Source: Planctomycetota bacterium
GTDB lineage: Bacteria; Planctomycetota; Planctomycetia; Pirellulales; Thermoguttaceae
Length of the DNA stretch: 50,750 nucleotides
Assembly: GCA_021784975.1 (NCBI GenBank)
Contig: JAJYGU010000390.1
Span: 1 to 50,750 of the forward strand
Direction: 5' to 3'
Part shown: piece by piece, positions 10,852-46,887 of the stretch
How positions within the stretch are numbered: position 1 is the stretch's first letter
Layout: each line of letters begins with the position of its first letter
Position numbers and translations under genes: made by a program
Notes under the pieces: generated by a model
Seen by the model: the letters and a program-made list of their open reading frames with translations, nothing else
Databases searched by the model: none
What the model was told of the DNA's origin: nothing

Positions 10852-10903
10852 GGGGACCGTCCCATTCTTGTGGCGTCCTGCCACAAAAATCGGGACAGTC
10901 CCC
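10852..10903. repeat. Palindromic double-GGGACNGTCCC element, copy 1 (intergenic, in a divergent promoter region)
   Basis: ggggaccgtcccattcttgtggc-gtcct-gccacaaaaatcgggacagtcccc, with 11-bp palindromic boxes at 10853-10863 and 10892-10902. Confidence 0.85.
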
Positions 10904-10976
10904 GCCCCCTACTCACCATTATTTGAATTGTGTTATACTGACTCGTTAGTGTTCGGACCGTTTCTGAAAGGGCAAG

Positions 10977-11306
10977 ATGGTCCGTCGATCTCACCCCCTA
11001 GCTGGGAGGGAACCCATGGGCACGCGGATTCCGCTTCAGACTACCGATGCCAAGGCGAAAGAGCTGGCCGACAAGCTGGAAATGAGCACCGCCGAGATTG
11101 GTCTTTCCGTCCGGACGACCAATTGTCTGGAAGAGCGAGGGATTTTCACGGTCGACGACCTGCTGCACTGTACCCGCGAAGAGTTGCTGAGCATCTCCAA
11201 CTTCGGCGAAAAGACGTTGGAAGAGGTCTACAAATCGCTGGAAGGCATCGGCTTCCATCGTCGAGCGGGGAGCGAGTCGAGCGGCCCTCCCCCGCAACCT
11301 CGCTGA
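10977..11306 (+). CDS. Standalone RNA polymerase alpha-subunit C-terminal-domain (alpha-CTD, HhH) protein
   Basis: LSVRTTNCLEERGIFTVDDLLHCTREELLSISNFGEKTLEEVYKSL matches the RpoA CTD helix-hairpin-helix signature. The alternative ATG at 11016 has a better GGGAGGG site. Confidence 0.8.
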   Translation: MVRRSHPLAGREPMGTRIPLQTTDAKAKELADKLEMSTAEIGLSVRTTNCLEERGIFTVDDLLHCTREELLSISNFGEKTLEEVYKSLEGIGFHRRAGSESSGPPPQPR

Positions 11307-11336
11307 GGCGGCCGCGTTGTAGCGGAGCAATCCACT

Positions 11337-12647
11337 TTGGCCCGCAGTTTCCGCTATTACGAAAAGAAGCGCGGCCATCGGCGGACCGGCTCGCCGGCCC
11401 TGGCCAGCGCCGGGGAGACGGCCTTTTTCGCCGCCCTGTTGACTCTGGGGTGCGGCGGGCTGATCGTGCTGTTTGTCACGCTGGTCGTGCCCCAATGGCG
11501 GGTGAACGTGGAGTTCGTCCAACAGGCGTGCAAGGTCCGCGACAAGGAAATCAAAGAAGCCCGCGACAAAGACGGCCTCCACTTTGCGCCCAAGATCAAG
11601 ATCGAGTACGAAGTGGGCGGCGAGACCAACCGGGCTTGGACCTATGATATCCAAAACACCGCCTTCAGCCGCCGCGAGGACGCCCAAGCGGTTCTCGATC
11701 AATTTGACCTCTACGACAAGGTCAAAGACAACCTTTATCCTTGCTGGTACAATCCGGCCAATCCCGGCGAGGCGGTCCTGATCCGCGGTTACCGCTTGTG
11801 GATTTGGCTGGTGTTCACTGTGCCCATCGCCTTTGTGCTGATCGGGGCCGGCGGGCTGATCTACGCCTGGTTGCACTGGGGCAAATCGGCCGAGCGGCAA
11901 GCGGCGTCGGCCCAACGCGGGCAGCAGCGCGATCGGTTCGCCGCCGTGGACGGCGACGACCGCCGATATCCGTTTGTTCCCCAAGGGGCCGACGTGACCA
12001 ATAGTCCGGGCACGCGGCTCCGCTTTCGCCTGCCAGCCGCGCGGCCGGCAGGTTGGCGGCTGTTCGGGGCCACCGTCTTCTGCCTGGTTTGGAACGCCTG
12101 CGTGGCGGTGGCGATGGTGTTGGCGGCCCGCGGCTTTCTCGCCGGCAGGCCGGACTGGATCTTCACCATCCTCATCCTGCCCTTTCTGCTGATTGGCGCC
12201 GGGGCCCTCGTCTTGCTGATTCGAGGGGCGCTGATTGCTACCGGCATCGGCCCCACCCTGGTCGAGATCTCCGCTCATCCGCTGCGCCCCGGCGGGCAGT
12301 ATCGCCTGTTTGTCTCACAGGCGGGGGCATTGCGAATGAACCTGCTCCGGGCCTCGCTGGTGTGCGAGGAGTCGGCCGCCTATCGACAAGGGACCAACAC
12401 CCGTACCGAAACCCAAGAAGTCTACCGGCAAGAACTGCTCCGCCGCGAGGCCTTTCGGATCCAGCGGGGGCGGCCGTTCGAGACCGAGTTCGAGTTGCGC
12501 GTGCCCGACCACGCCATGCACTCCTTCGTGGCCGAACACAACCAGGTCGGCTGGCGACTGGTGGTCGAGGGCGAGGCGGCCGATTGGCCCAGCTTCTCTC
12601 GTGCCTTTACGGTGATCGTCCAGCCGGGAAACGGGGAGGCCGACTGA
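11337..12647 (+). CDS. DUF3592-like multi-pass membrane protein with a C-terminal arrestin-like beta-sandwich module
   Basis: TTG is the first start codon after the in-frame stop at 11304-11306. One TM segment, then a beta-rich extracytoplasmic domain, then several TM segments. The C-terminal module carries HPLRPGGQY...FELRVPDHAMHSF...VGWRLVV. Confidence 0.7.
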   Translation: MARSFRYYEKKRGHRRTGSPALASAGETAFFAALLTLGCGGLIVLFVTLVVPQWRVNVEFVQQACKVRDKEIKEARDKDGLHFAPKIKIEYEVGGETNRAWTYDIQNTAFSRREDAQAVLDQFDLYDKVKDNLYPCWYNPANPGEAVLIRGYRLWIWLVFTVPIAFVLIGAGGLIYAWLHWGKSAERQAASAQRGQQRDRFAAVDGDDRRYPFVPQGADVTNSPGTRLRFRLPAARPAGWRLFGATVFCLVWNACVAVAMVLAARGFLAGRPDWIFTILILPFLLIGAGALVLLIRGALIATGIGPTLVEISAHPLRPGGQYRLFVSQAGALRMNLLRASLVCEESAAYRQGTNTRTETQEVYRQELLRREAFRIQRGRPFETEFELRVPDHAMHSFVAEHNQVGWRLVVEGEAADWPSFSRAFTVIVQPGNGEAD

Positions 12648-13057
12648 TGGGCGCGGAGCCGGCAATCATTATTCGGCTGGAAGGCAATGGCCGGGTGTAT
12701 CGGCCGGGCGAGTCGCTCTGCGGCGAATATTGGATCCAATCGCTGCCGGGCGACCAACTCAAGGCGATCGAAGCTTCGGTGCTCTGGTACACCGAAGGCA
12801 AGGGCGACGAGGACATGGCGGTGCAGGAGTTCTGGCGGCGGGACTTCGACGCGGAATGCTCCCTCGACCCCAGCCGCCCGGAGCCTTTTGGGGTCCGATT
12901 GCCCGGCAGCCCCTTGAGCTATGAAGGACGGATTGTCAAGATCCGTTGGTGCGTGCGGGTGCGGGTGTTTCTGCAGCGCGGCAAGGAGCTGCTTGGTCAA
13001 AAGGTATTTCAACTGGGCGACGTGCCCAGCCCGCAAGCCGGAGGTCTGTCCGGATGA
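12647..13057 (+). CDS. Small arrestin-N-like beta-sandwich protein
   Basis: Its ATG overlaps the upstream TGA (ATGA at 12645-12649). The motifs YRPGESL...FGVRLPGSPLSYEG...IRWCVRV parallel the C-terminal module of the preceding protein. Confidence 0.6.
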   Translation: MGAEPAIIIRLEGNGRVYRPGESLCGEYWIQSLPGDQLKAIEASVLWYTEGKGDEDMAVQEFWRRDFDAECSLDPSRPEPFGVRLPGSPLSYEGRIVKIRWCVRVRVFLQRGKELLGQKVFQLGDVPSPQAGGLSG

Positions 13058-13695
13058 GTGGATCGCTCTCTTGCACCGCCGAGGAGAACCCTTTTTGCTC
13101 GCGGCGCATTCGCCCGGGGGCGATGCCTTATCTGTTCCCGCCTGGCCAGTCCGCCCAAGACCTGGTTGCAGTCTTGCGGCGGGCGGATTGGTGGGGAGAG
13201 ATCATCGGTCCGCATGGTTCGGGCAAGTCGGCGCTGCTGGCCGCGTGCACGGCGGTCCTCGATCAAGCCGGCCGGCCGACACGGTTGGTGGCGCTCCACG
13301 ACGGCCAACGCAGATTGCCGCCGGGACTGACCGACGATCGGCAGCTAGCGCCGTCCACCGTGGTAATGGTTGACGGCTATGAGCAACTGAGTTGGTGGAG
13401 CCGCTGGCGGCTGAAGGGCCGCTGCCGGCGGGGCGGGTTGGGGCTGCTGGTGACCGCCCATCGCACCGTGGGCCTGCCGCGGATCGCGCAAACCGCCCCA
13501 AGTCTGGAGTTGGCGGAGCGGATTGTCGCGCAGTTGACGGCCGATCGCCGCCCGCCGGTGGATTCCGGGTCGATCCGCGAGTGCTATGCCCGCCACCGCG
13601 GCAATTTGCGCGAAGTGCTCTTCGATCTTTACGATCTTACCGAGCAGCACCTCAGCCGGACGGAGACTCAGCCCCGAAGGGGCGTCAGTCATTAG
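13054..13695 (+). CDS. P-loop NTPase (small AAA-like protein)
   Basis: ATGA overlap with the upstream stop (13054-13057). Walker A GPHGSGKS; Walker B-like VVMVDGYEQL. Confidence 0.7.
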   Translation: MSGSLSCTAEENPFCSRRIRPGAMPYLFPPGQSAQDLVAVLRRADWWGEIIGPHGSGKSALLAACTAVLDQAGRPTRLVALHDGQRRLPPGLTDDRQLAPSTVVMVDGYEQLSWWSRWRLKGRCRRGGLGLLVTAHRTVGLPRIAQTAPSLELAERIVAQLTADRRPPVDSGSIRECYARHRGNLREVLFDLYDLTEQHLSRTETQPRRGVSH

Positions 13696-13991
13696 GCGAC
13701 CAAGCAAGGCCCGCGGCTTTTCACCCGCCAGCACAGTCCGGTTGGCCGCACGCCGGCAAAAAGTGACCTAGGCTTGAAGTGAAGTGTCGGCGGCCGGACA
13801 TGGTCCGAGAGCGGAGTGTTGGGCTTGACCGGCAGAGTTTGTCTGAGCGGCAAAGACCGCACAATCGGAAAGTGCAACCAACTGTGCGGCCGAGCCGCCC
13901 GATTGCTTGACATTTTTATTCAAGAACGCTCTGATGAACCAAGTGGGGTTTGTCAATCGCCGGAGCGAGAACTCTATCGGGAGCCAGTGCC

Positions 13992-14945
13992 ATGTTACGT
14001 GCTAGCGTGCGAACGAAAATGATCGCGGTGGTGACAACCGCAGCCGTACTCGCCTTGCCCGGAGAAAGCAGGGCTGGCTGCGGTTTGTGTGATTGGCTGT
14101 TCGGCCGGCATTGCGCGGCGCCGACTTGCGCTCCGGCTTATGTGGCCCCGCCGGCGTGCAGCGCGACCGCGTGTTATGCGCCGGCCTGCGCGCCGATCGT
14201 TCCGGCGTGCGGCAGTTGCGCGACCCAAGTCGTCGGCTATCCGCCGGCGTTTGCGTATTCCACCTACCGGCCGATCTTCGGCTATCCGCGACTGGTGCCC
14301 TACACCACCTACCGCATGGCCTACACGCCGATCGTGCCGTACGTCGCCTACAGCCCCTGCCTCGGCGGTTGCGCAACCTGCGCGGCCCCGTGTGCGACGT
14401 GCGCCAGTCCGTGCCTGAGTTGCGCCGCCCCATGTGCAAGCTGCGCGAGCCCGTGTACTTCGTGTGGCAGCTCGTGCACCACGTATATGCCGCCGGCTCC
14501 GATCGCCGCAGTAGCCGCGGCCCCTGCCGTCCCTGCCCCGGTCCCGGTGCCTTCGGGCCCTGCCCCTGCCCCGGCGGCCCAAGCCGCCCCGGCTCTGCCA
14601 CCCGCCAATCCGGCCCCCGGATGTGCTTCGGGCATCGGGCCGGCGACCTACCCCGCCGGGCCGGCCATCGGTGGAACGCCCCCTTCCCCGACACCGGCGC
14701 CCCCGAAGACTTTTCAGGAGAACAAGCCGTCGGATGCGCCACAGCCCGTGCCACTGCCCGCCGATAAGAAGTCGAAGCCGGACGTGAACACCAATCCGAC
14801 CTCGACCGGACCGCGATTGATCGATCCGCAGAGCCGCACTGCCATGCTGCCGCTCCGCGAAGCCGCCCGCATTCAACTCATCGGCGCGGCGATGCAAGCG
14901 GGCACTCCGCCGGAGAATGCCGGCTGGCAGGCGTCCAAGGACTAA
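13992..14945 (+). CDS. Secreted Cys/Pro/Ala-rich low-complexity protein with tandem CxxCxxP heptads
   Basis: ATG at 13992 (the track starts at TTG 13950). Hydrophobic signal segment MIAVVTTAAVLALPGESRA, 30+ Cys, and the run CATCAAPCATCASPCLSCAAPCASCASPCTSCGSSC. Confidence 0.6.
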   Translation: MLRASVRTKMIAVVTTAAVLALPGESRAGCGLCDWLFGRHCAAPTCAPAYVAPPACSATACYAPACAPIVPACGSCATQVVGYPPAFAYSTYRPIFGYPRLVPYTTYRMAYTPIVPYVAYSPCLGGCATCAAPCATCASPCLSCAAPCASCASPCTSCGSSCTTYMPPAPIAAVAAAPAVPAPVPVPSGPAPAPAAQAAPALPPANPAPGCASGIGPATYPAGPAIGGTPPSPTPAPPKTFQENKPSDAPQPVPLPADKKSKPDVNTNPTSTGPRLIDPQSRTAMLPLREAARIQLIGAAMQAGTPPENAGWQASKD

Positions 14946-15937: not shown

Positions 15938-16067
15938 GCTGCGGAGTTGTGGTAGCGTTGCGACGGTGGGATCGCTGTTCGATTTCGCGCGGGTGCCGTA
16001 TAATCCTGGTTGACTAGAGAGCGCTAGGCGAAGTGTTTCCCTAACCGCTTTGGTGGTGAGGTGATTA

Positions 16068-17092: not shown

Positions 17093-17117
17093 CCGCTGGT
17101 CCTTCCGATCCTGACCA

Positions 17118-29886: not shown

Positions 29887-31683
29887 TCATTCCTGCAGAA
29901 TCATCCGCACGAAGAACTGCATCAGTTCTTGCAGGTCGGGCGTAGGAAACTCGGCGGCGGCGGCCAGGGCGCGGTCGCGCAACCTCGCGTACAACTGCTC
30001 AACCTTCGCCAGCGCGCCCGATTCGCAGTAGACCTGGTACACCTGGTCGAGCAACTCGTCGCTGGTCGAGTTCTCCATCAGCTCGGCCAGTTGCGCCAAC
30101 CGCGGTCCATGCCCGCCTTCCGTCGCGAAAATGTGCAACAGAGTGACACGGCCGGCGCGGGCGTCGAGGCCGCGATGCCGCTTGTTGTGTTGGTCTTCTT
30201 GCCAGTCATCGAGGTCGTTACGAACCTGGAACCCTTCGCCGAGATAGGTGGCAAAGCGGCGGAGGATCGTCGGGTCGACGTCCGCTTGGGCCGCCCGCAG
30301 CCCCGCATAGAGGGCCGCCTCGAAGGCCGGGGCCGTCTTCTGCGCGGCGGCCTGCATTGCTTGGGCCGCCGCATAGGGCGGCCGGTGATCCTGGCTTTGC
30401 AGTTCGGCTCCCTGCCCGCGGCACAGTTCCAAGTGGGCGCGCGAAAGCCGGTCGAGAATATCGCCACTGCAATCGGCCCCCAGCGGCACGCTTTGCCCGG
30501 CAATCAGCCGGTAGCCCAGGCCGATGAGGAAATCGCCGACGTTGATGGTCTGGGCCACGCCGTGAATGCGGTGCAGCGTGGGAAGGCCGTAGCGGTAGTG
30601 GTCGTTGTCTTCGATATCGTCGTGGACCAGCGAGGCCTTGTGCAAGGCTTCAATGGCTAAGGCGATGCGGCGGACCGCCACTGGCAGTCGCTCCGCCAGA
30701 TCGCTGCCCGGGTCCGCCTGCTCCAGAACGCCGGTTCCGTGTTTGGCCACCGCATAGGCTGCCAGGGTCACGAACGGCCGCAAGCGTTTGCCGCCCTCTT
30801 GGAGCCATTGCAAGGCTATCTCTTGAACCGTTGGCCCCAAGGGGGGCCGTCCCATTTCCACAGCCTCCTGCCGCGAAAATTGGGACAGTCCCCGTGAACC
30901 GTTACCAAGCTGCCCGGCTAATTCGGCAACCTCGATATAAGGCGCGAGCAGCTCGGCGAACGTCGGCTGGCGAAACATCCGACCGGTCTCGCGGAGCAGA
31001 CCGAGGTAGCTCCGCCGCGAGGTCGGCGTCAAGACCGCCGTCGGCGCGGACTGCGCCGCCAAGAGACTGCGAATCTGGCCGATTTCCGCTTCGGTGTCCT
31101 TGCAACCGTCTCTCAGCAACGGTACGGCGACGTGCGGGATGCCGAGCTCGACGACGCGTTGGAAGGATCGCTCCAGGGAATCGAGGCAGGCGACGCCGAG
31201 GATCGCATCCGCGTCCCCTTCCAACACGCGAAAAAGAACCGACGAGGTGCCTTCCGCCACGATCACCGAGTAGCCCAACTGCTCGGCTTCGGCCTTCAAG
31301 GCGTGGATCTCGCAACTGCCGCAGCCGGCGCAGTGCAGGCCCACGGAATCATAGCTGCCCGCGCACGCGGTCTGGTCGCGCAAGCAATGCGGCAGCAGGA
31401 ACAACCGGCGATGAAGGGCGACAGTCTCGAAGATCGGCAGCCAGAATTCGTTGCTGACCGCTACCATGGTGAAACCAAGTAGAGTCCGCGGCAGCTCCAA
31501 CCGCTGCAAAATCTCCTTGCCGATTTGCTCCAATCCCTCCCGCGACATGGGACGCGAGCGGTCCAGCCCGGCCGCTGCTCGGGCCGCGGCCGAGCGAATC
31601 GCCTGCCGCAGGGTGGCGCTTTCAGGAACGCGCTTGATCTCGTCGTGGCGGCGGTGAGCGGCTTTCAGAGGCTTAGAGGTCAT
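29887..31683 (-). CDS. Fusion protein: DUF116-like Cys-rich domain plus trans-polyprenyl diphosphate synthase domain
   Basis: ATG at 31683 overlaps the cyclase TGA (ATGA). The N-terminal half has LFLLPHCL...CAGCGSCEI...GYSVIVAEGTS...GVAC (DUF116 pattern). The C-terminal half has GKRLRP, LVHDDIEDND (first Asp-rich motif) and FQVRNDLDDW (variant second motif). The track's longer ORF to 32319 is an artefactual extension. Confidence 0.8.
   Translation of the reverse strand: MTSKPLKAAHRRHDEIKRVPESATLRQAIRSAAARAAAGLDRSRPMSREGLEQIGKEILQRLELPRTLLGFTMVAVSNEFWLPIFETVALHRRLFLLPHCLRDQTACAGSYDSVGLHCAGCGSCEIHALKAEAEQLGYSVIVAEGTSSVLFRVLEGDADAILGVACLDSLERSFQRVVELGIPHVAVPLLRDGCKDTEAEIGQIRSLLAAQSAPTAVLTPTSRRSYLGLLRETGRMFRQPTFAELLAPYIEVAELAGQLGNGSRGLSQFSRQEAVEMGRPPLGPTVQEIALQWLQEGGKRLRPFVTLAAYAVAKHGTGVLEQADPGSDLAERLPVAVRRIALAIEALHKASLVHDDIEDNDHYRYGLPTLHRIHGVAQTINVGDFLIGLGYRLIAGQSVPLGADCSGDILDRLSRAHLELCRGQGAELQSQDHRPPYAAAQAMQAAAQKTAPAFEAALYAGLRAAQADVDPTILRRFATYLGEGFQVRNDLDDWQEDQHNKRHRGLDARAGRVTLLHIFATEGGHGPRLAQLAELMENSTSDELLDQVYQVYCESGALAKVEQLYARLRDRALAAAAEFPTPDLQELMQFFVRMILQE
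30843..30893. repeat. Palindromic GGGACNGTCCC element, copy 2 (degenerate left box), inside the DUF116-synthase ORF
   Basis: ggggccgtcccatttccacagcctcctgccgcgaaaattgggacagtcccc is 51 nt long. It is read through in frame as ...GNGSRGLSQFSRQEAVEMGRPPLG... about 15 codons before GKRLRP. Confidence 0.75.
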
Positions 31684-33044
31684 CTGCGGGTTGCTCTGCC
31701 AAGGGCCTCGATCGTCCAGATCAGCGGATACAGCCGTTCCGAGTACCAAAGCCGGGAAAAATACAGGCCGATGGCCGCCGGCCGGTCGCACCCCTGGCGG
31801 ACGTTTGCCACCAGGTACTTCACTCCTCGCGACACGCAGTGGCCGGCCGCCGGATTTTGCGGCCAACCGGCCAGGGCCGCCACGGCCAGCGCCGTCTCCT
31901 CGACCGATGACGCAATGCCGGTGGAGCCGCCCCAGCCGCCGTCGGCGTTTTGCGCGCGGCACAGATATTCTACGCCACCGGCCGCCTGGGCACCATTGCC
32001 GTCGACGATTTCCAAGGCCCGGAGCACCAATGAGGTGCCAATCACCGGATTGTGCTGACCCGGTGCGGCCTGGTTGCCAAACCAGAGCGGCAGCCAAGAG
32101 CCATCGGACTCTTGGACGCGGCCCAGATAGTCCCCTCCGCGGCGGAGTGCGCGCCGCAGCCGGGCGGTCGATACGCGGTGCGTAGAAGGGGACAGTCCCA
32201 TTTTTGCGGCATCCTGCCACAAAAATTGGGACCGTCCCCGGCGGTTGATACCACCCAGGGCGCGGAGCACGTGGGCCGTCACATCCGGGGCGCTGCGGTC
32301 GAAGAGGAGCTTTCCCCATCCACGGCAGAAGGTCGGCCAGCCGCCGTCGCGGTTTTGCAAGTTAAGCAGCCAGTTTACGCCGGCAACGGCGCCGGCGTGG
32401 TGCCCCAGTTCCGCCAGCGCGATCAGGGCCCCGGCCGTGTCATCCGCGTCGGGCACCCCGCCCGGCAGATGCGTCCATGCCCAGGCGCCCGCCGCCGCCT
32501 GCGTGTAGGGGTGCGCGGAGGCCGTTTGTCGAGCGGCGACCCATGGGCCGGTCGTAGGGCAATCAAGTTGTCCTAGCGATCCGGCCGCCGCCAGCGCGGT
32601 AACCGCCGATGTGGTCAGCCATACCGCCAGGTTCGTGTCGATCGGCCAACTGCCGTCGGCCCGCTGCGATTGGCGAAGGAATTGCAGGCAGCGGGCGGCT
32701 ACCGGCTGTTCCGGTCCGAATGACGAAACCAGGCCCATGGCGACGAAGCTGGTTAGCGGGGCCGCATCCAGGAATCCGCCATGTTCCGGCTGAATCTGCT
32801 GAAGCTTCGCCAAGGCCCGCGGCGTCGTCGCTCGCCGTAACGCGCGCAGCAAGCCACTGTGGGGCGGACCATGGTGGTGGATTGCCAGGCCAATGGCAAT
32901 CAGGGCCGGCAGGGCATAGCTGACCACGTGGAGCCGGAGCAGTCTATAGCACCAAGGCGGCAGCACCGACAACTCGAAGGGCAGGCCGGGAACCTCCGGC
33001 CAAGAAACCAACCCGGCCAGGGCGCAGTTCATCAAGATCGGCAC
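31680..33044 (-). CDS. Class II terpene cyclase (squalene-hopene-cyclase-like), C-terminal about 75 percent; same frame as 33066-33488
   Basis: DxDDTA catalytic motif (VPDADDTAG) and QW-like repeats QRADGSWP, QNRDGGWPTF, QESDGSWLPLWFGN, QNADGGWGG. The track start is a GTG with no SD, 21 nt after an in-frame TAG. Confidence 0.8.
   Translation of the reverse strand: MPILMNCALAGLVSWPEVPGLPFELSVLPPWCYRLLRLHVVSYALPALIAIGLAIHHHGPPHSGLLRALRRATTPRALAKLQQIQPEHGGFLDAAPLTSFVAMGLVSSFGPEQPVAARCLQFLRQSQRADGSWPIDTNLAVWLTTSAVTALAAAGSLGQLDCPTTGPWVAARQTASAHPYTQAAAGAWAWTHLPGGVPDADDTAGALIALAELGHHAGAVAGVNWLLNLQNRDGGWPTFCRGWGKLLFDRSAPDVTAHVLRALGGINRRGRSQFLWQDAAKMGLSPSTHRVSTARLRRALRRGGDYLGRVQESDGSWLPLWFGNQAAPGQHNPVIGTSLVLRALEIVDGNGAQAAGGVEYLCRAQNADGGWGGSTGIASSVEETALAVAALAGWPQNPAAGHCVSRGVKYLVANVRQGCDRPAAIGLYFSRLWYSERLYPLIWTIEALGRATRR
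32188..32239. repeat. Palindromic GGGACNGTCCC element, copy 3, inside the cyclase ORF
   Basis: ggggacagtcccatttttgcggcatcctgccacaaaaattgggaccgtcccc. It is translated in frame as ...RRGRSQFLWQDAAKMGLSPS..., between a DVTAHVLRAL helix and the next QW repeat. Confidence 0.85.
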
Positions 33045-33065: not shown

Positions 33066-33488
33066 CTAGGCGCGTTGAATTGCACAGGCAATCTCGCGGG
33101 CCGAAAGGGGAGAAGCACACTTGCACTGTGTGACCACGTACTCTTCGGCCCCCAGCTTCATGTCTGGCGCGGATGGGATGCGGAGCGCGCCTGCCAACCT
33201 CAAGGCGGCGAGGGCCAACAGCGTGGTCGCCAGGTTGCTGGGGCTATCAGTCGTGTCGCCCCAACCGCCGTCGGCGTTCTGATGCGCGGCCAGCCAGGCT
33301 ACGCCACTGCGGACGCCTTCGCGGTCGCTGTCCACTTTGGCCAGGGCGAGCGCGCTGATGGCGGTCGCGGTCGAAAGCGCCGACGAAGAAAGCTCCCCCT
33401 CCCAAAAGCCCTCGGGCCGCCGCGCCTCGATCAGCCGGCCGCAGAGGAATTGAAGCGTGTCGGCCATGACCGCCTGGAAGGTCAGCAT
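33066..33488 (-). CDS. Class II terpene cyclase, N-terminal fragment, ending at an in-frame TAG
   Basis: MLTFQAVMADTLQFLCGRLIEARRPEGFWEGEL and AAHQNADGGWGDT resemble the SHC N-terminus. ATG at 33488 lies 30 nt after the radical SAM stop. Longer starts (33590, 33653) would overlap that gene. Confidence 0.6.
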   Translation of the reverse strand: MLTFQAVMADTLQFLCGRLIEARRPEGFWEGELSSSALSTATAISALALAKVDSDREGVRSGVAWLAAHQNADGGWGDTTDSPSNLATTLLALAALRLAGALRIPSAPDMKLGAEEYVVTQCKCASPLSAREIACAIQRA

Positions 33489-35026: not shown

Positions 35027-35992
35027 TCAGCCTCTCCGCTGCATGGCTCGGTCGAGCTGATCCACCAGATCGTCGAGATCGCTGAAGGCCCGCCGCTGGG
35101 CGGATTCGCCGGACTCCTTCGGAGGCGTGTGGGTCATGGCTTCACGCCCCGCGGGCGGGCGGGCGGATTGCGTTAGCTCCGCCAGCGGGCAGCCACATTC
35201 AGGACAGGCGCCGTTGCCCGCCACCGCCGCCCGCGACTTCTTGGCGACCTTTTGGCCGCAGGCCGGACAGGGCCGGCCGGTGCGGGAGTAGAACATCCGG
35301 CGGGCGGCGGCATCGAGGGCCACCAACTTGCCCGGCGCTCCGGCAATGGCCGCGTCCTTCTCATAGAGCGGAAACATAAGGGCGCTTTGCGGGCAGATAC
35401 GTGCGCAGGCCGGACAGCCCGGCTTGCACTGGTCCGGTTGCCGGACCTGGACCTTCCCATCTCCGTCCAACTCGTACACGCCGAATAGACAGAACTGCAA
35501 ACAATGCTGACAGTTGGTGCACCGCGACTGGTCGACCACCGGGTACCAGCGCGGCTTGGTCGGGGCTCGCAATTCTACCAATCGCCCGGCGTCAAAGGGG
35601 GCAGTCCCAGTTTCGCGGCGGTCAACCGCGTGAGTACGGCTAGATCGCTGGCGCCGCGAGAATGGGGATAGTCCCCCGGCCGCGGCGAAGGCCGACTTGG
35701 CGTCGGCAAACGTGCGGAGATCGAGAATGTGCGATTCGGCGAGGTGAATCTGGTGCCGATGTAAGAGCCAGCTCACCGCCCGCGGATGCAACCATCCGAG
35801 CAAGACTGCCTGCTCCACGCCGTCCGCCAATGCCTTCCAGAGCTTGCTCGACTCAGCCAGGTGATACAGCGGCGGCACGACAAGACAATCGACATCCTCG
35901 GCCCCACATCGTTCGATGATGTCCTGCTCGAGCGCGACCGTCCGCGCATCGGGATGCTCGTGCTTCGAGAGAATGATCCGGTTGGGGCGCAT
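35027..35992 (-). CDS. Two-domain protein: unknown N-terminal domain plus 2x[4Fe-4S] ferredoxin domain and a C-terminal CxxC...CxxC tail
   Basis: ATG at 35992. Cluster motifs CTNCQHCLQFC and CKPGCPACARICP, then CPACGQK...CPECGC near the C-terminus. Confidence 0.8.
   Translation of the reverse strand: MRPNRIILSKHEHPDARTVALEQDIIERCGAEDVDCLVVPPLYHLAESSKLWKALADGVEQAVLLGWLHPRAVSWLLHRHQIHLAESHILDLRTFADAKSAFAAAGGLSPFSRRQRSSRTHAVDRRETGTAPFDAGRLVELRAPTKPRWYPVVDQSRCTNCQHCLQFCLFGVYELDGDGKVQVRQPDQCKPGCPACARICPQSALMFPLYEKDAAIAGAPGKLVALDAAARRMFYSRTGRPCPACGQKVAKKSRAAVAGNGACPECGCPLAELTQSARPPAGREAMTHTPPKESGESAQRRAFSDLDDLVDQLDRAMQRRG
35597..35675. repeat. Degenerate palindromic GGGACNGTCCC-type element, copy 7, inside the ferredoxin ORF
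   Basis: ggggcagtcccagtttcgcggcg ... gccgcgagaatggggatagtcccc. It is translated in frame as ...GGLSPFSRRQRSSRTHAVDRRETGTAPF... and links the two domains. Confidence 0.5.
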
Positions 35993-38329: not shown

Positions 38330-38407
38330 GAATGTTTCTCCAAAAAAACTTGGCTTACAACCGCGGGGTGAAACTCGCGATGGCAATCGCATTCCTGCTT
38401 CCAATCT

Positions 38408-38460: not shown

Positions 38461-38464
38461 CCGA

Positions 38465-40209: not shown

Positions 40210-40632
40210 ATGCAATGGAGGGATTGGTTATCCGCGGCCGTGTTGGCCAGCAGCTTGAGCACGGTGACGCTGGCCGCCGCGGCGGATTGCGGCTGTCGCG
40301 GGGCCGCGCTGATGAACTACCCGGGCTACGCCGCCTTGTGCGGGGAGGCGTGTTGCTGCTCGCCGGGTTATGCGCTGGTGCCTGGTTGCTGCGAGAATTA
40401 TAAGCCGTGTTGCGACAATGCCTGGGCGGGCTATTGCGAGCACCGGGCCAAGGTGGACGCCCGCCGGAGTCGGGTGGGGGTGCCTCACGCGGGGCGGCAC
40501 GCGGCGGTGTGCTGCGGGTGGGCCGCCATCGAGACCGAAGAGTCGCCGTTGCAGCCCATCCCGGCCGCTCCGGCTGAGCCGCCGGAAAAGTCTCGCCAAC
40601 GCGCGGCGCCCAACCCAGCGACCGGCAAGTGA
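40210..40632 (+). CDS. Small secreted Cys-rich protein
   Basis: AGGAAGGAG then ATG. Signal peptide MQWRDWLSAAVLASSLSTVTLAAAA. Cys clusters: CGC, CGEACCC, GCCENYKPCCDN, YCEH, VCCG. Confidence 0.65.
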   Translation: MQWRDWLSAAVLASSLSTVTLAAAADCGCRGAALMNYPGYAALCGEACCCSPGYALVPGCCENYKPCCDNAWAGYCEHRAKVDARRSRVGVPHAGRHAAVCCGWAAIETEESPLQPIPAAPAEPPEKSRQRAAPNPATGK

Positions 40633-40647
40633 GGCGGGCAAGTCCAA

Positions 40648-40718
40648 GGGGGACAGTCCCATTTTTGTGGCCGGGCACCGTGCGAAGCATGGTCGCCACA
40701 AAAATCGGGACAGTCCCC
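40648..40718. repeat. Palindromic GGGACNGTCCC element, copy 4 (long-loop variant, intergenic)
   Basis: gggggacagtcccatttttgtggc-[24-nt loop]-gccacaaaaatcgggacagtcccc, with boxes at 40650-40660 and 40707-40717. Confidence 0.85.
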
Positions 40719-40939
40719 GCTTTCCGCTGAATCCCAGCCACGCTTCGGCCGATAACCCGAAATGGACCTGCCGGGAGGGCGGGGCACGCTGTGTCCCGTT
40801 TCAGGATTCGAGATCATGGCGACCATGGATCGGCTGCCATGATCTTTTCTATGGCTTGCGACGGAAAGCGAATCCGACGTTCTTCGCGGACGACGGTCGG
40901 TGTCTCCTCAGGCCGTTGCGCGTATCGTTTGCCGGCCGC

Positions 40940-42322: not shown

Positions 42323-42605
42323 CGCAAACTCCAAGCCACCCGCCAGCCGCGAGAAACACGCCGTAACCGACACCATAAATCTAGCCTACGGCAAGCGTCC
42401 CCGATTGGCAAGACGACGGACCGTCGGCTTGGCGAAACCGCTCGCCGTGCGCGCGGCTCAAGGCGTTGGCCAAACTGGTGATACGTACACCACCATGCAG
42501 AGTTATACCAACCGGCTCACGGTAGCTTCCCCTTGGGGACCACTTCTGCTACGTTGGTGATCGTGGTTCGTCTGTCCAGGTTTCCTTTGCATAAGGAGAG
42601 TTCCG

Positions 42606-43040
42606 ATGAGGCGAATGATTGGGGTGCGAATGGCGACGATGCTGCTAACCGGTTTGGTGGTGGTGTGGGCGGCCACACAGTCGGCGCCTGGCGCCGACAA
42701 CAATCCCGGCGCGCCGGCCAAAACCGGCAAGAAAACCAGGGCTTCGTCGAACCGTCTGCCGCGGTACTTCAGCAAAGTGGTTGATAAGCAACAGCGCGAA
42801 AAGATCTACACGATTCAGAACGAGTACCGGCCCAAGATCGCCGCTGCCCGCAAAGTCTTGACCGACCTGCTGAAGCAGCAGAGCGACAAGATGCTGGCCG
42901 TGCTCACGCCGGAGCAGCAGAAGCAGGTTCAAGACGCCGCCGCCAGCGCGAAAAAGAAGAGGTCCGCCGCGGCTTCCAGCAAACGCACCGCCGGGCAACC
43001 GGCCGGCTCCAAACCGGCAGCCGCGACCGCCGCCAAGTAG
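42606..43040 (+). CDS. Secreted LTxxQ-motif (Spy/CpxP-like) protein
   Basis: AAGGAGAG then ATG. A signal peptide, a helical basic body, and LTPEQQKQV. Confidence 0.6.
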   Translation: MRRMIGVRMATMLLTGLVVVWAATQSAPGADNNPGAPAKTGKKTRASSNRLPRYFSKVVDKQQREKIYTIQNEYRPKIAAARKVLTDLLKQQSDKMLAVLTPEQQKQVQDAAASAKKKRSAAASSKRTAGQPAGSKPAAATAAK

Positions 43041-43202
43041 CCGGATTCATCATCGCTGTCCCTTGTAAGGCAAGCATCGGGCAGATATGATTCTTGCGCG
43101 TTTAAGGGAGGATGGAGTCCCTCTGAAATCGCCGGCGTTCCGGCTGATGACTCCTACCAGGGCGAATCATCCCTCGGTGGGGGCCAAGGGGCGAATTAGG
43201 TG

Positions 43203-43237
43203 GCTCCCGCAGGGCAAGCCCGGCGGGAGCTTTTTTT
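43203..43237 (+). terminator. Strong intrinsic terminator
   Basis: gctcccgc-agggcaagcccg-gcgggagc followed by TTTTTTT (43231-43237). Confidence 0.75.
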
Positions 43238-43330
43238 CGAATGGGCTAGCAGCAGTAGTCGGAAATCGGCGGCCAGGGAGGCCCGTGCCCACGCCCGCGA
43301 AAGCTCCGCAGATAGTAGCCGACGATGCTA

Positions 43331-43430
43331 AGCGGCCGTCCAAGAACAAGTTGGGGACTGTCCCAATTTTCGTCCGACGAAAATGGGACTGTCCCCTTGG
43401 CGAAAGTGGAAGTTGTTGCTGGACGGCCGC
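43331..43430 (+). mobile_element. 100-bp MITE-like palindromic element, copy A (contains two GGGACTGTCCC boxes)
   Basis: It is the exact reverse complement of 46788-46887. The internal palindrome is ggggactgtcccaattttcgtc/gacgaaaatgggactgtcccc. The near-palindromic outer ends are gcggccgtccaagaacaa / ttgttgctggacggccgc. Confidence 0.85.
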
Positions 43431-43504
43431 TAACTCCGCTGCACAAGAACGTCCTGCTTACCGGTTTTCTGGACGTTGAGAACCGGCTGAAGCAAATGGT
43501 CAAA

Positions 43505-43672
43505 TCACTCCTTTTCTTCCCGCTCGCAATCTTCCTCCCGGCCTTGAAGCCAGCCATCGTGCCAAACGGAGGCTTCGTCGGAGTCGCGCGGGTAGGGATT
43601 GTCGCTCAACTCGGTCCCGACCCAATACGCATCATAACCTTCCACATAGGTGTCCTTCGTGACGCTGGACAT
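43505..43672 (-). CDS. Ribosome-modulation-factor (Rmf)-like small protein
   Basis: AAGGAGA then ATG at 43672. GYDAYWVGTELSDNPYP....WHDGWLQGRE follows the Rmf pattern GY.AG..G....CPY....W..GW. Confidence 0.55.
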   Translation of the reverse strand: MSSVTKDTYVEGYDAYWVGTELSDNPYPRDSDEASVWHDGWLQGREEDCEREEKE

Positions 43673-43829
43673 TTGAGTTCTCCTTTCGGGCGAAAACCAC
43701 TCGGCTGCCAACTCACGATCCCTGCGGCATCGGTGAGTACCGCGTGCCCCGGGATTAACATGACCGTGAGAATTGTATGCCCACGCACAGACCGGTCAAC
43801 GCGCCTGGCCCCTGAACGCGCAGACATTT

Positions 43830-43859
43830 GGAGTGCGGTGATTTATCACCGCTTTTCTG
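43830..43859 (+). repeat. GGAGTGCGGTGAT..ATCACCGCTTTTCTG hairpin element (one of three related copies)
   Basis: Stem 43835-43842 / 43845-43852 plus TTTT. Related copies occur at 20479-20502 (plus orientation) and 20575-20604 (minus orientation). Confidence 0.6.
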
Positions 43860-43980
43860 AACCGGCGGAAAGATTGCTATACGATTTTTAGGTGAACCTC
43901 GACTGGCGCCCGTGTTGCGGAGAACGCCGGAAAAGCGGCAACAAATTGCCGACTCCAAAGAAAGCTCGCTTGTTTAAGGC

Positions 43981-44664
43981 CTAGCGGCCCAGAACGCCTA
44001 CCAGGCCCTCGACGACGTGGTTCGGCAGCGGGGCCGAGCGTAGCAGTTCGGCGGTGCGGCCCACGTCGTAAGGGATCCGTTTCAGGTGCATCTGGCCATC
44101 GCGAAATACCGCGTAACAGGCTTGGCCGTGAATATCGCGGGCCAGGCCGACGCTGCCGGGATTGACCACCGTCCGCTTGCCGAACGTCCGTATGCCTTGG
44201 ACGTGGGTGTGGCCCAGAAGCACAAAGTCGCCGTCCAACTCCGCGACTCGCGAGCCCCACTGGTCCATGCTGAGATATTCAAACAGATCGCCCTGCGGAG
44301 TCGCGTGGGCCATGCGGAAGTGCCGCCCCTCCCATTGAAAAAGGTCCACCACCTGCATGGTGCGCAAGAATTCGCATTCGTCGTCGCTCAACAGCGTGCG
44401 GTGCCAGGCGCGAGTGGCCAGCGAATACTCGCGGAAAGTTCCCATGCAGCGGCAGTCCACCCCGTAGCCCAAGGCGTTGTCGTGGTTTCCCCGGACAAGG
44501 TGGTCGGCGTTTTCTCTCAGCCAGCGGAGACATTCCGCCGGCTGCGGCCCGTAATCAACCACGTCCCCGCAGAATACCACTGCATCGTGTTCGGGCTCGG
44601 CTGCCAGCACCGCCTCCAGGGCTGGCCAGTTGCCGTGGATGTCGGACAAAATCAACAAGGTCAT
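43981..44664 (-). CDS. Metallophosphoesterase (YfcE/MJ0936-like)
   Basis: Motifs LSDIHGN, CGDVVDYG, GNHD, GHTH. Its ATG overlaps the MFS stop (ATGA at 44661-44664). Confidence 0.9.
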   Translation of the reverse strand: MTLLILSDIHGNWPALEAVLAAEPEHDAVVFCGDVVDYGPQPAECLRWLRENADHLVRGNHDNALGYGVDCRCMGTFREYSLATRAWHRTLLSDDECEFLRTMQVVDLFQWEGRHFRMAHATPQGDLFEYLSMDQWGSRVAELDGDFVLLGHTHVQGIRTFGKRTVVNPGSVGLARDIHGQACYAVFRDGQMHLKRIPYDVGRTAELLRSAPLPNHVVEGLVGVLGR

Positions 44665-46259
44665 GTTGTCTCCAATGCGGACCTGGGGTGAAGGACGCGT
44701 CGCGCCAGCGTCCCTACGATGGTGATGCCGGCCAGCAGAAGGGCGGCCTGGCAGAAGCTGCCGTACATTTCGGCGTAGGTCAGGTTGTCGGCCTGGTAGT
44801 TGACTGCCCGGTAGAAGAGCGAGCGGGCCTTGCGTTCGGCCACGCTGGGTGAGGCCCCGGATTGGACCAGCACCTCTTGCAATCGGGCCATCTCGGCCGA
44901 GAGCTCCGCGGCTTGGGTGGTGCCGACGTTCTCAGAAACGTAAACATACTGGGTTTGATGTCCGATGATCAGCCAGGTCACCAGCAGCCCGATGGACAGG
45001 CCACCGGCCATCGTCTGGAAGACCGGAAATAGCTGCCGAATATGCAGTTCAACGCTGGTTCGGCGAGAGACCATGGCGGTCAGCGAGGCGAACAGCCAAC
45101 CGAGGCCGAAGCCGGTGACGGCACGGCCCGGGGCCAGTTGCCAATGGAGCGGGGCCATAAACCAATCCAGGCGCATCGTATTTTCCACCCGCCAAAAGGG
45201 CCAGTCCATGGTGGTGCGGTTCAACAGCCACATTCCCAGGGCCAAGATCAACAAGCCCGAGACCGCGCCCCCGCTGCCCAAGGGGCGGCGGCGGAGCCAG
45301 AGGCTGGCGATGGCCAGCGCTAAGGCGGTGCCGATCGGCATCGACCAGACGAGCCAGGAGCGTTGCCACACATCGTAATTGATCAGCAGCCCGCTGTAGA
45401 TCGTCATGGTGGTGCCGTGGAAGAATTGGACGGCCCCGGCGAAGGCCATCAAGCCCAGGCGGAGTCCATTCTCGCGGACCGCTGCCAAGTCGAGCGCTCC
45501 GCGGAGCAGCCAGCACGTGCCAACCAGGCCGAGGCCGCCGGCCGCATAGGCGAGGAGGACCAGCGGACTTTCTGACCAACCTTGAAGCTGTCCCCAATGG
45601 AGGCAGTACCAGCCGGCAGCCACGGCGAGGACCAGCCAGGGCAAGTACAGAATCGGCCCGGCAGGCAACAGACGCGGCGGCTGGGCAGCCTTCGTCGGGG
45701 GCATCGCCAGGACCGCCGCGAAGCACACCAGCCCCAAGAGCCCCTCGAAAAGGAATCCGCCCTCCCAAGCCGCCGTCCCGTAGAGAAAACTTGCCCCGCC
45801 GATCAACGGTGCTCCCAGCGGCGGCAGGAGGATCGCCGCCCAGGCGACCGTGCGGTCCCAACGCGGCTCCAAGAGCATCGGGGTGTAGAAGAGCACCAGC
45901 CCGCCGCCGATGCCCGCCAGCACCCGGCCGGTCAGAAATCCCCATAGCGGCCACTCGACGAAGAAGCCGTTCAGCGCCGAGCCGCCCGCGAAGGCCGCCA
46001 ATCCGAACAAGACCGGGCCGCGGAAACCGAGCCATGGAAAATGACGCAAGAGGTGGGGACTGGCCAACAAGGTCAAGGCGATGGCCAACAGATAGCCGCT
46101 GTGGAGACTATAGGCCTCGGCCGTGACCCAGCCGCGGGCGTTGTACATTTCCCGGAAGTTCAGCGTATGGCCGGCGGTGGTCAACCAGATCACTGCGATG
46201 GCCGCCAAGGGCGCCGCCGCCAATAGCCGGTCCCAGAGAGAACTGGCGCGCGCGATCAT
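44661..46259 (-). CDS. MFS efflux transporter (14-TM DHA2/EmrB-like)
   Basis: ATG at 46259 (the track ORF extends to 46469 over the neighbouring gene). About 14 hydrophobic segments. It is encoded downstream of HlyD and TolC-like genes. Confidence 0.8.
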   Translation of the reverse strand: MIARASSLWDRLLAAAPLAAIAVIWLTTAGHTLNFREMYNARGWVTAEAYSLHSGYLLAIALTLLASPHLLRHFPWLGFRGPVLFGLAAFAGGSALNGFFVEWPLWGFLTGRVLAGIGGGLVLFYTPMLLEPRWDRTVAWAAILLPPLGAPLIGGASFLYGTAAWEGGFLFEGLLGLVCFAAVLAMPPTKAAQPPRLLPAGPILYLPWLVLAVAAGWYCLHWGQLQGWSESPLVLLAYAAGGLGLVGTCWLLRGALDLAAVRENGLRLGLMAFAGAVQFFHGTTMTIYSGLLINYDVWQRSWLVWSMPIGTALALAIASLWLRRRPLGSGGAVSGLLILALGMWLLNRTTMDWPFWRVENTMRLDWFMAPLHWQLAPGRAVTGFGLGWLFASLTAMVSRRTSVELHIRQLFPVFQTMAGGLSIGLLVTWLIIGHQTQYVYVSENVGTTQAAELSAEMARLQEVLVQSGASPSVAERKARSLFYRAVNYQADNLTYAEMYGSFCQAALLLAGITIVGTLARRVLHPRSALETT

Positions 46260-46269
46260 TCTGGTCACC

Positions 46270-46812
46270 TCACTCGCCGTGCAGCAGCCTTTCCCGCGGG
46301 AACATTCCATTGATCCACGCCAGTAGCAGCCCCTGCGGAGTCTGCAAGGTGAGCGTCGGCCGGTAGGGATGGTCGAGGCCGGCACGCTCCAGTCGCCCGG
46401 CCAACTCCTCATAGATGCCGGCGATGAACTTCTCCTGTTGCTCCGCGCCGAGCTCGCCCCAGCCTGCACCGGTGGTGAGAATCACCGGTAGACGCGGCTC
46501 TTGTTGGTAAACTCCGACGCCGTAGGGCAGAAGGGTTTGGGCGACCGGCAGGACCTCGGTGCGGCTGAACAGCGGACGGCCTTTAGGGCTCCTGTTGGCG
46601 GTCTGCACCCAACGCTGGAATTCCTCTGCGACGCGAAGCAGCTTAGGCTCGCTGATGACCGAACGAAGGTATGCCGGCGGAAGGCTTTCCGGCTGGCCTT
46701 CCGGAACATTCGGAGAAGGCTGGCCGCAACCGGACAAGATCACCAACATCAGGCCCGCAACGGCTGCCTGCTTCGCAACGCTCCTGAGCGGCCGTCCAGC
46801 AACAACTTCCAC
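46270..46812 (-). CDS. Lipoprotein of unknown function
   Basis: Lipobox LSGC. GTG at 46812 (inside the element copy) gives MEVVAGRPLRSVAKQAAVAGLMLVILSGC. The only in-frame ATG (46749) leaves an 8-aa signal, which is too short. Confidence 0.5.
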   Translation of the reverse strand: MEVVAGRPLRSVAKQAAVAGLMLVILSGCGQPSPNVPEGQPESLPPAYLRSVISEPKLLRVAEEFQRWVQTANRSPKGRPLFSRTEVLPVAQTLLPYGVGVYQQEPRLPVILTTGAGWGELGAEQQEKFIAGIYEELAGRLERAGLDHPYRPTLTLQTPQGLLLAWINGMFPRERLLHGE

Positions 46813-46887
46813 TTTCGCCAAGGGGACAGTCCCATTTTCGTCGGACGAAAATTGGGACAGTCCCCAACTTGTTCTTGGACGGCCGCT
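46788..46887 (-). mobile_element. 100-bp MITE-like palindromic element, copy B
   Basis: It is the exact reverse complement of 43331-43430. It lies between two co-directional genes of the efflux operon. Confidence 0.85.

Follow-up and report, generated by a model that had tools for sequence, protein, structure and literature searches.

What are the palindromic repeats that recur along this stretch of a planctomycete genome, and by what route did so many of them come to lie there? We analyzed the whole stretch of 50,750 nt (the window), in which a first-pass annotation had described a dispersed, high-density family of palindromes built from paired 11-bp boxes. Our results indicate that the window copies belong to a family of miniature mobile elements, and we put the probability at roughly 80% that these are non-autonomous DNA elements, mobile in Planctomycetia, that combine a MITE-like anatomy with a behavior like that of the Rickettsia palindromic elements (RPEs).

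Seven copies in the window

The family is real, as a position-weight scan with both half-sites over the 50.75-kb window returned exactly seven copies and no others, or one copy per 7 kb, with no matches in 10 shuffles. The exact box sequence GGGACNGTCCC was observed 11 times versus 0.10 expected, a count that none of 100 shuffles reached. With up to two mismatches allowed there was no excess (41 observed, 45.9 expected), and the signal is therefore carried by near-perfect copies. The features are as follows:

10841..10903 (core 10852-10903), plus strand: short-form copy, 11-nt stub and 52-nt core; scan scores 18.7 and 34.2
30831..30893 (core 30842-30893), plus strand: short-form copy, in frame within a DUF116-polyprenyl synthetase fusion gene (minus strand), in its linker
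32177..32239 (core 32188-32239), plus strand: short-form copy, in frame in a squalene-hopene-cyclase-like gene (minus strand)
35597..35676, plus strand: long-loop degenerate copy, one mismatch in each box, inside a 4Fe-4S ferredoxin-domain gene (minus strand), in its variable linker
40638..40718 (core 40649-40718), plus strand: nested-hairpin copy, with an additional hairpin within the loop
43331..43430, minus strand: 100-bp composite unit, 44-nt core 43353-43396 (reverse) within an outer palindrome AGCGGCCGTCCA...TGGACGGCCGCT
46788..46887 (core 46822-46865), plus strand: second copy of the 100-bp composite unit, inverted relative to 43331-43430
7268..7285, plus strand: possible relic of uncertain membership, below threshold

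Re-examination confirmed the coordinates of all copies in the first-pass annotation. Its box spacings of 57 nt (one copy) and 31 nt (two copies) were also correct, but the 39-nt spacing occurs in three copies rather than two; in the degenerate copy the boxes are 67 nt apart. The supposed solo half-site at 7268-7285 consists only of the 12-mer GTCCCATTTTCG (the junction of box and A/T tract), scored too low to pass the scan and can at most be a relic. Moreover, the true unit exceeds the paired boxes to which it had been limited, with a conserved stub of ~11 nt located 5' of the left box. These real unit boundaries, like the in-frame insertions in coding sequence described below, were absent from the earlier annotation.

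The three copies of the 50-nt type represent the short form of the element, and the other four are variants (one nested hairpin, one degenerate long loop and two with a 100-bp outer palindrome). All are small units (52-106 bp) without coding capacity and are dispersed. The first copy, whose core is identical to that of a metagenome copy (L128) at 51 of 52 positions, sits in a divergent intergenic spacer, upstream of a minus-strand UvrD-like helicase gene and more than 100 nt away from where this gene probably starts; the coding signal stops near 10740. The nested-hairpin copy is intergenic between convergent genes, based on the GC3 profile and on gene calls in a 99.9%-identical MAG contig. The two 100-bp units are identical in sequence and opposite in orientation, and the composite recurs with ~90% identity in another MAG locus (L001). 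The unit at 43331-43430 is flanked by a fluoride riboswitch on one side and the 3' end of an rmf gene on the other; the second is intergenic, immediately upstream of the start of a lipoprotein gene whose lipobox signal peptide directly follows the unit.

Anatomy, spread and route of insertion

The family was found in many Planctomycetia MAGs and metagenomes, its ends conserved and its center variable, with the right end common to at least 120 metagenome loci and an estimated density in family-positive loci elsewhere of ~1 copy per 15-22 kb. Such abundance well outside the window favors the mobile or recruited element that the first-pass annotation had proposed. Metagenome copies whose cores are 96-98% identical (50-51/52) to the window cores fall into two discrete forms. 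The long form, of 89-91 nt, has terminal inverted repeats that have diverged from each other: its left end GGGCCTGTACGGATTTTTGTG and the reverse complement of its right end GGGGACTGTCCCGATTTTTGTG match at ~18 of 22 positions. It opens with the left terminal repeat, GGG[G/A/C]CTGTACGG.ATTTTTGTG; next come a spacer of 11 nt, an internal copy of the right repeat in inverted orientation and a loop, before the right terminal repeat closes the element with ...AAAAATCGGGACAGTCCCC. Within the core, this internal copy and the right end are inverted repeats of each other except at the central base and for a bulge of 1 nt, and they are the paired boxes seen in the window. The short form is 63 nt in length and sharply bounded, comprising an 11-nt stub, which corresponds to the long form's spacer, and the 52-nt core; conservation falls off abruptly at -12. 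The left flank has the consensus ...G[T]GCG[A/G]CCGA[A/G] next to GGGG, and the right flank is variable. The two boxes have A (or C) as their central base, both read on one strand (A/A in 88 of 89 copies in relatives), and hence the element is polar and would fold as a long hairpin with a conserved mismatch and a 1-nt bulge.

Target-site duplications, whose presence the first-pass annotation had suggested checking, were found in related copies of the long form. When the 7-mer to the right of the element was sought 37-39 nt to the left of the core (null expectation ~0.8% per copy), 49 of 100 unique metagenome copies among the matches listed had a 7-bp duplication exactly at the long-form ends. 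No target-site duplication was identified in 40 independent copies of the short form, which also has no left terminal repeat, nor was a convincing one seen for the window's own copies, two of which have 9-12-nt flanking repeats whose implied inserts of 71 and 77 nt misfit the reading frame. No insertion polymorphism was detected among three near-identical assemblies of the window organism. Comparison with orthologous loci, also suggested previously, pointed to mobility, since the corresponding sites in the nearest relatives are without copies; 26 kb of the two nearest relatives contained none. Together, the 7-bp duplications and the empty orthologous sites indicate that copies arrive by insertion.

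The exact 7-bp duplications of the long form are the signature of staggered-cut (DDE-type) transposition. The boxes are best taken as a transposon's terminal repeat, to which a transposase encoded elsewhere would bind; any protein that binds them is most likely such an enzyme, and the elements may be regarded as selfish, with effects on transcripts or proteins presumably being by-products. The termini of the repeats and the length of the duplication point to a mobilizing enzyme that is probably of the IS1595 family and IS1016-group-like. This assignment is an inference, as no transposase was found: there was no transposase gene in the window or beside the copies in other loci, and a crude IS1595 motif screen of ~1.7 Mb of locus fragments had no match. 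Similarly, neither the window nor those ~1.7 Mb yielded an autonomous element whose terminal repeats match, and no long left-end/right-end pair flanks an ORF in the fragments.

The DDE route does not account for the short form, with its missing left repeat and lack of duplication. Potentially, an HUH-type tyrosine transposase moves this form in a single-stranded state, as in REP/RAYT or IS200/IS605 systems, with DDE chemistry restricted to the long form; the enzyme would recognize the imperfect hairpin together with its unpaired 5' stub. Several features are in keeping with this: the short form is sharp-ended and duplication-free in independent copies, its hairpin has the conserved central A/A mismatch and bulge, the conserved unpaired 11-nt stub at one end is the general anatomy of a REP, and 11 of 33 copies are nested within larger palindromes, as though hairpin loops were preferred targets. 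However, neither end adjoins a conserved target tetranucleotide, the GTAG/CGTC tag is absent, no Y1 transposase is encoded in the window or by neighboring genes, and the same core in the long form clearly moves with 7-bp duplications. In addition, these elements insert into coding regions, unlike the extragenic REPs. We therefore consider single-strand mobilization of the short form unlikely. The corresponding broader proposal, that the 63-nt form is an independently mobile, coding-compatible parasite that spreads without duplication, so that one family would employ two transposition chemistries, is likewise tentative and doubtful. If it were true, an exact 21-codon, stop-free unit would repeatedly add loops to planctomycete proteins, and a single-strand, hairpin-recognizing pathway would be the candidate duplication-free route.

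Copies inside genes and proposed host functions

Three of the seven window copies are in frame inside genes. The copy in the squalene-hopene-cyclase-like gene contributes exactly 63 nt, or 21 residues (RSQFLWQDAAKMGLSPSTHRV), and among 120 aligned homologs only the window protein has it, the nearest homolog (74% identity) being without the insert. The copy in the DUF116-polyprenyl synthetase fusion encodes GLSQFSRQEAVEMGRPPL within one ORF that has Pfam domains on either side; in the relatives L120 and L121 this fusion gene is present but has no 18-residue insert, and a distant relative (L112) has a different element subtype in the same linker. The cyclase loop and the fusion linker are thus both filled in the window and empty in its nearest relatives. 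The degenerate copy is covered by the NCBI gene call for a protein (P0121) identical to the window's ferredoxin-domain product, the linker of which is 14 residues longer than that of its nearest homolog, and another homolog (P0166) has its own independent in-frame copy, GTVPIFVPAKMGLSP. Further coding insertions in other loci are in purL (L081), a ubiE/menG-like gene (L018) and UbiD (L107). All six reading frames are free of stop codons in the four window copies of 50 and 68 nt, and the short form is 21 codons long; insertions in loops and linkers are therefore tolerated inside genes. The squalene-hopene-cyclase-like gene additionally contains an in-frame TAG, however, so it is not certain in that case that a working protein accommodates the insert.

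These locations bear on the proposal that the 11-bp palindromic box is a selected host cis-regulatory site bound by a dimeric regulator or nucleoid protein, which the first-pass annotation had thought plausible. The near-invariance of the boxes in distant genomes, with a center that varies in both sequence and length, is what such a site would display, and some copies lie in 5' regions (10852 and 46822). Nevertheless, the presence of copies in coding sequence, both in the window and in purL, the ubiE-like gene and UbiD, is at odds with a regulatory site, as are the unrelated housekeeping nature of the flanking genes and the heterogeneous placement and orientation of the copies (5' region, convergent, co-directional and intragenic). 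The 7-bp duplications denote insertion rather than a site evolving locally, the nearest relatives have no copy at the orthologous sites, and the long form's left terminal repeat is non-palindromic yet serves as an end. Consequently, a role as host regulatory sites is highly improbable.

A second functional proposal, that the elements are retained as stable RNA hairpins acting as terminators, 3'-end protectors or processing sites, has precedent in that roles in 3'-end protection, processing or termination have been proposed for REPs and some MITEs. The predicted folds are indeed very stable, at -35 to -47 kcal/mol with z-scores of -5 to -9 (-43.5 kcal/mol and z -8.8 for 10841-10903; -44 to -47 kcal/mol for the nested-hairpin copy), and the 100-bp unit at 43331-43430 reaches -61.6 kcal/mol (z -8.9). 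The location of the copy at 40649, 17 nt past the stop of the plus-strand ORF 40210-40632 and between convergent genes, would suit such a role, as would that of 46822 between co-directional minus-strand genes, and in three window copies the C/A central bases give G.U wobbles on the minus strand. On the other hand, the T-run forms part of the stem instead of following it and the sequence 3' of the hairpin is not rich in U, copies also occur within coding regions and upstream of genes, and the 15 copies embedded in coding sequence are distributed ~9 versus 6 by direction of transcription, indicating no orientation bias. There was no Rfam family match, and copies arrive by insertion. A purely RNA-level hairpin, the other option considered previously, is thus unsupported, and we regard retention for RNA function as very unlikely.

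Two other structures were considered and rejected. Intrinsic terminators do not fit, since the T/A runs base-pair with each other as part of the stem, T is not abundant in the 3' flanks and copies are present in coding sequence and 5' regions. Integron attC sites have conserved R''/R' core sites (RYYYAAC/GTTRRRY) that bound promoterless cassettes in an array; the elements here end in GGGGAC/GTCCCC and their neighbors are conserved syntenic housekeeping genes, not cassettes.

Comparison with known mobile elements

Non-autonomous mobile elements, our preferred reading of the family, are a known kind of element, and the family appears to be a new member of that kind in a group where it was previously undescribed; our literature search returned no account of such elements in Planctomycetota. 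Its anatomy is most like that of a MITE derived from an insertion sequence of the IS1595 family (IS1016 group), as both are short, non-coding, multi-copy and dispersed with terminal inverted repeats. The target-site duplication of the IS1595 family is usually 8 bp, and that of IS1016-group elements is 7-9 bp (PMC12561309), a range that includes the 7 bp of the planctomycete long form. The repeat of ISApl4 (IS1016 group), GGGGCTGTACTAGA, can be compared with the planctomycete termini, which start GGG[G/A/C]CTGTAC: GGGACTGTACGG and GGGCCTGTACGG have GGGgCTG-type termini, and 9 of the first 10 bases match, an agreement so short that a link to the IS1016 group is only suggested. The planctomycete family differs from an IS1595-derived MITE in its host phylum, in having an additional internal inverted repeat copy that makes the right two-thirds of the element a hairpin, and in having a second form of 63 nt without left repeat or duplication. 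In addition, a cognate transposase was not found for it in the window or the ~1.7 Mb of fragments.

There are also similarities to REPs and REPINs, including an imperfect palindrome, one end of which bears a conserved unpaired tag, frequent nesting or pairing, a high copy number and, for the short form only, the lack of a target-site duplication. However, the planctomycete elements do not have the GTAG/CGTC tag by which REPs are defined (PMC3733652), they occur inside genes, no RAYT gene was seen, and their long form has 7-bp duplications.

In behavior, the elements are analogs of the RPEs, with which they share in-frame palindromic insertion in genes as well as intergenic copies. As described in a review (PMC10969869, reviewing Ogata et al. 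2000), RPEs are palindromic elements of ~100-150 bp in the reduced genomes of obligate intracellular bacteria, inserted in frame in unrelated metabolic and housekeeping genes at fold-compatible spots such as variable loops and inter-domain linkers, and found in intergenic DNA too. The planctomycete elements are 52-106 bp and reside in free-living Planctomycetia with contigs of up to 7-8 Mb. They also differ from RPEs in having a related long form with clear duplications, which provides a lead on the mechanism of transposition.

The palindromic element and its seven copies

The window holds 11 exact instances of the 11-bp box GGGACNGTCCC, where 0.10 would be expected, and no shuffled sequence attained 11. 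At two mismatches no excess of the box over expectation was found in the window, so the signal is held by near-perfect copies. A position-weight scan of the window for two half-sites returned exactly seven copies (0 in shuffles), which corresponds to one copy per 7 kb. The window itself is ordinary chromosome (G+C ~64%), matches contig DAHWSS010000552.1 of the NCBI MAG GCA_027342305.1 at 99.9% identity, and carries housekeeping genes with no transposase among them.

On reading the sequence, the arrangement proposed by the first-pass annotation, paired boxes enclosing A/T tracts and a hairpin, was present at every position where it had been placed. The reported 39-nt box spacing was confirmed, but in three copies rather than two. 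The central base (A, sometimes C) is the same in both boxes on one strand; the long hairpin consequently contains a mismatch that is conserved, together with a 1-nt bulge. The supposed solo half-site near 7268 is just a 12-mer. Single-strand folds of the units are very stable, with energies of -35 to -47 kcal/mol (z -5 to -9) and of -62 kcal/mol for the 100-bp units, and no Rfam family matched at any copy at gathering or permissive thresholds. All six reading frames are open in the four copies of 50 and 68 nt. Three of the window's copies lie in frame within genes, and the four intergenic copies occupy unlike settings.

Settings of the seven copies in the window
32188-32239: in frame in a variable-length loop of a squalene-hopene-cyclase-like gene
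30842-30893: in frame in a DUF116-polyprenyl synthetase fusion, within its linker
35597-35676: variable linker of a ferredoxin-domain gene, spanned by the NCBI gene call
Intergenic: divergent spacer, upstream of a UvrD-like gene
Intergenic: between convergent genes, starting 17 nt past a stop codon
Intergenic, 100-bp unit: fluoride riboswitch on one side, rmf 3' end on the other
Intergenic, 100-bp unit: between co-directional genes, just upstream of a lipoprotein gene

Long and short forms and their movement

A metagenome scan queried with the right-hand end of the 50-nt subtype seen in the window identified at least 120 loci. Their cores are identical to the window copies at 50-51 of 52 positions and sort into two discrete forms. 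Of 100 unique metagenome copies, about half have a conserved left arm of 37-39 nt ahead of the core, and in 49 of the 100 the 7 bases that follow the element on its right recur without change at the arm's left edge, compared with ~0.8% expected. The arm and the exact repeat together define the long form as an element of 89-91 nt with 7-bp target-site duplications, demonstrating that it transposes by a staggered cut. The left end (GGGCCTGTACGGATTTTTGTG and variants) is related to the reverse complement of the right end (GGGGACTGTCCCGATTTTTGTG), of which it is a diverged copy. These two ends are the true terminal inverted repeats, and what had been taken as the left box is an internal, inverted third copy of the terminal repeat. 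The paired boxes are repeat copies of the element's end.

The short form, to which the window's three 50-nt-type copies belong, is 63 nt long and keeps only the arm's final 11 nt, with a sharp drop in conservation at -12. None of 40 independent short copies showed a duplication, whatever the length or nearby boundary considered, and no target motif was seen at the element ends. Direct repeats of 9-12 nt flanking the two cleanest coding copies were at first read as duplications; this was rejected because the implied inserts (71 and 77 nt) would break the frame and the alignment at 32188 shows an addition of 63 nt. In combining an unpaired tag with an imperfect hairpin and in having no duplication, the short form resembles the substrates of REP/RAYT and IS200/IS605 systems, which would make HUH-type single-strand mobilisation a possible, though less likely, route; neither the tags nor the target motifs of those systems are present, and the short form inserts into genes.

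The boxes would be bound by a transposase supplied in trans. The termini of the long form (GGG[G/A/C]CTGTAC...) and its 7-bp duplication resemble those of the IS1016 group of the IS1595 family, a putative assignment based on a 10-base similarity and a length. The IS1016 group makes duplications of 7-9 bp, and the repeat of ISApl4 is GGGGCTGTACTAGA (PMC12561309); the traits of the IS1595 family have been described (PMC8101967). No autonomous partner was identified by searching for half-site pairs 0.5-6 kb apart, by Pfam analysis of neighbouring ORFs or by a transposase motif regex.

Copies within and between genes

Gene calls beyond the homolog-checked cases were made by a crude GC3 method, which misses the cyclase and ferredoxin genes, and coding claims were therefore checked against homologs. 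In an alignment of 120 squalene-hopene-cyclase homologs, the 21-residue insert RSQFLWQDAAKMGLSPSTHRV is found only in the window protein, whose gene is longer by exactly 63 nt at 32188, and it is absent from the nearest homolog (74% identity). In the relatives L120 and L121 the DUF116-polyprenyl synthetase fusion is called as one gene, in both cases without the 18-residue insert, and the two nearest relatives have no copy in the 26 kb examined. The possibility of mobility raised by the first-pass annotation is thus supported by empty orthologous sites at both the cyclase loop and the fusion linker, and we conclude that copies arrive by insertion. A copy of a different subtype occupies the same fusion linker in the distant MAG locus L112, and the ferredoxin-domain homolog P0166 has an independent copy, GTVPIFVPAKMGLSP, in the corresponding linker. 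Additional in-frame coding copies were found in purL (L081), a ubiE/menG-like methyltransferase gene (L018) and a UbiD-family gene (L107), and in-frame copies are retained in conserved genes. Under a crude test for coding, copies embedded in coding sequence are mainly of the short form (5/34 versus 1/41 for the long form), which fits a stop-free, duplication-free unit of 21 codons.

The same cyclase loop has other lineage-specific inserts in homologs P0003, P0004, P0006, P0007, P0014, P0015, P0018, P0019, P0034, P0052, P0061 and P0072, including GDCPN (a translated lone box), ARTGSTPAN-like 9-mers and PSPFGRGAGGEG, which suggests a repeated landing site of several repeat families. Elsewhere in the gene, a single in-frame TAG at 33066-33068 (minus strand; AIQRA*GADRTF versus AIQLAYGADRTF) replaces a Tyr conserved in homologs, leaving two ORFs, 33653-33066 and 33044-31680; a nonsense mutation, recent pseudogene formation or an error in sequencing could account for it. 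A peptide search with the translated 100-bp unit (14 cluster representatives) matched mostly N-terminal over-extensions or low-complexity sequence. Two of the proteins, P0243 (276 aa; three translated short cores, GLSQFSSDENGTVPF-like, interleaved with another repeat) and P0244 (a TPR/CHAT protein of 1201 aa whose called N-terminus includes elements of two types), may reflect gene calls extended too far or genes invaded several times.

Two inverted, identical 100-bp units flank a 3.4-kb segment; the features in and beside it are:
43099-43163 (+): fluoride riboswitch (Rfam RF01734, 43.6 bits)
43164-43504: 100-bp element, then the 3' end of minus-strand rmf
43331-43430 and 46788-46887: the identical 100-bp units
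43431-46787: 3.4-kb segment with rmf, metallophosphoesterase, 602-aa ORF and lipoprotein genes
43505-43672 (minus): rmf, 55-aa ribosome modulation factor (Pfam RMF, E 3e-7)

The riboswitch has no plus-strand gene downstream and looks orphaned. Recombination between the units would invert the segment and place the lipoprotein or metallophosphoesterase genes downstream of it. The 99.9%-identical MAG contig, in which rmf (below the 100-aa size of our ORF list) is annotated, shows this arrangement over the part that it covers, containing only the 43331 unit and ending short of 46788. Adjoining another copy, at 30894-30905, is the near-palindromic motif GTGAACNGTTAC (or its complement), whose single occurrence in the window is not above chance; it recurs beside copies and elsewhere in related metagenome contigs (L028, L050, L082, L118, L165, L178, L189 and L231) and may be part of another repeat family.

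Two functional readings had been offered for the boxes. Against their being binding sites of a dimeric host regulator stand the copies in coding sequence, the orthologous sites found empty, the varied positions relative to genes and the target-site duplications, all of which contradict it. That they act primarily as RNA hairpins is contradicted by the missing U-tract and by copies in coding and 5' locations. An orientation bias relative to transcription (7/7 in the window) vanished when more coding copies were included (~9 versus 6), and the argument for a strand-specific RNA role was dropped. Secondary RNA effects are possible at some intergenic copies of what we regard as inserted mobile DNA.

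Distribution and comparison with known elements

The family is abundant beyond the window. A paired-box scan of one genome per species found at least 119 loci. Among the matches listed, about 25-30 loci belong to Planctomycetaceae, Pirellulales, Thermoguttaceae and other Planctomycetia MAGs. They share the same type of ends (GGGGACAGTCCCATTTT ... AAAAT[C/T]GGGACAGTCCCC), and their centres vary in sequence and length and always form a hairpin. Family-positive loci imply ~1 copy per 15-22 kb, an estimate from the matches listed, and the neighbouring genes are unrelated housekeeping genes. Outer inverted repeats surround 11 of 33 copies (null 2.8%), including the window's two 100-bp units; rather than as part of the core, we read them as nesting in other, larger palindromes. 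Paired boxes in Lachnospiraceae, Bacillus, Acidobacteriota and others are not this family, being unrelated hairpins or tandem arrays caught by the pattern. Examples in unrelated phyla are the GGGGAC[A/T/G]GTCCCC arrays or hairpins, with periods of about 20-60 nt, of L095 (Latescibacterota), L116 and L038 (Lachnospiraceae), L034 (Acidobacteriota), L065 (Kiritimatiellia) and L021 (Pseudoduganella).

A conspicuous Planctomycetia repeat is explained as mobile DNA, with a warning that annotators should not take its palindromes for regulatory sites and should expect to meet them within real genes. The copies are also of use as markers in strain typing and in detecting rearrangements, an example being the two inverted 100-bp units around the 3.4-kb segment. 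In the literature searched, neither this family nor palindromic repeats or MITEs of planctomycetes were described, and the literal motif matched solely eukaryotic primers. By structure the family is a MITE, without the defining features of REP/RAYT elements, intrinsic terminators or attC sites. In behaviour it parallels the palindromic elements of Rickettsia, whose insertions in metabolic genes are in frame (reviewed in PMC10969869), and it provides a second large case, outside Rickettsia, of in-frame palindromic elements in housekeeping genes (purL, ubiE-like, UbiD and isoprenoid genes), bearing on how selfish DNA adds loops to proteins. Its one real puzzle is the duplication-free 63-nt form of exactly 21 codons, whose presence alongside a duplication-making long form poses a testable question about the movement of miniature elements.
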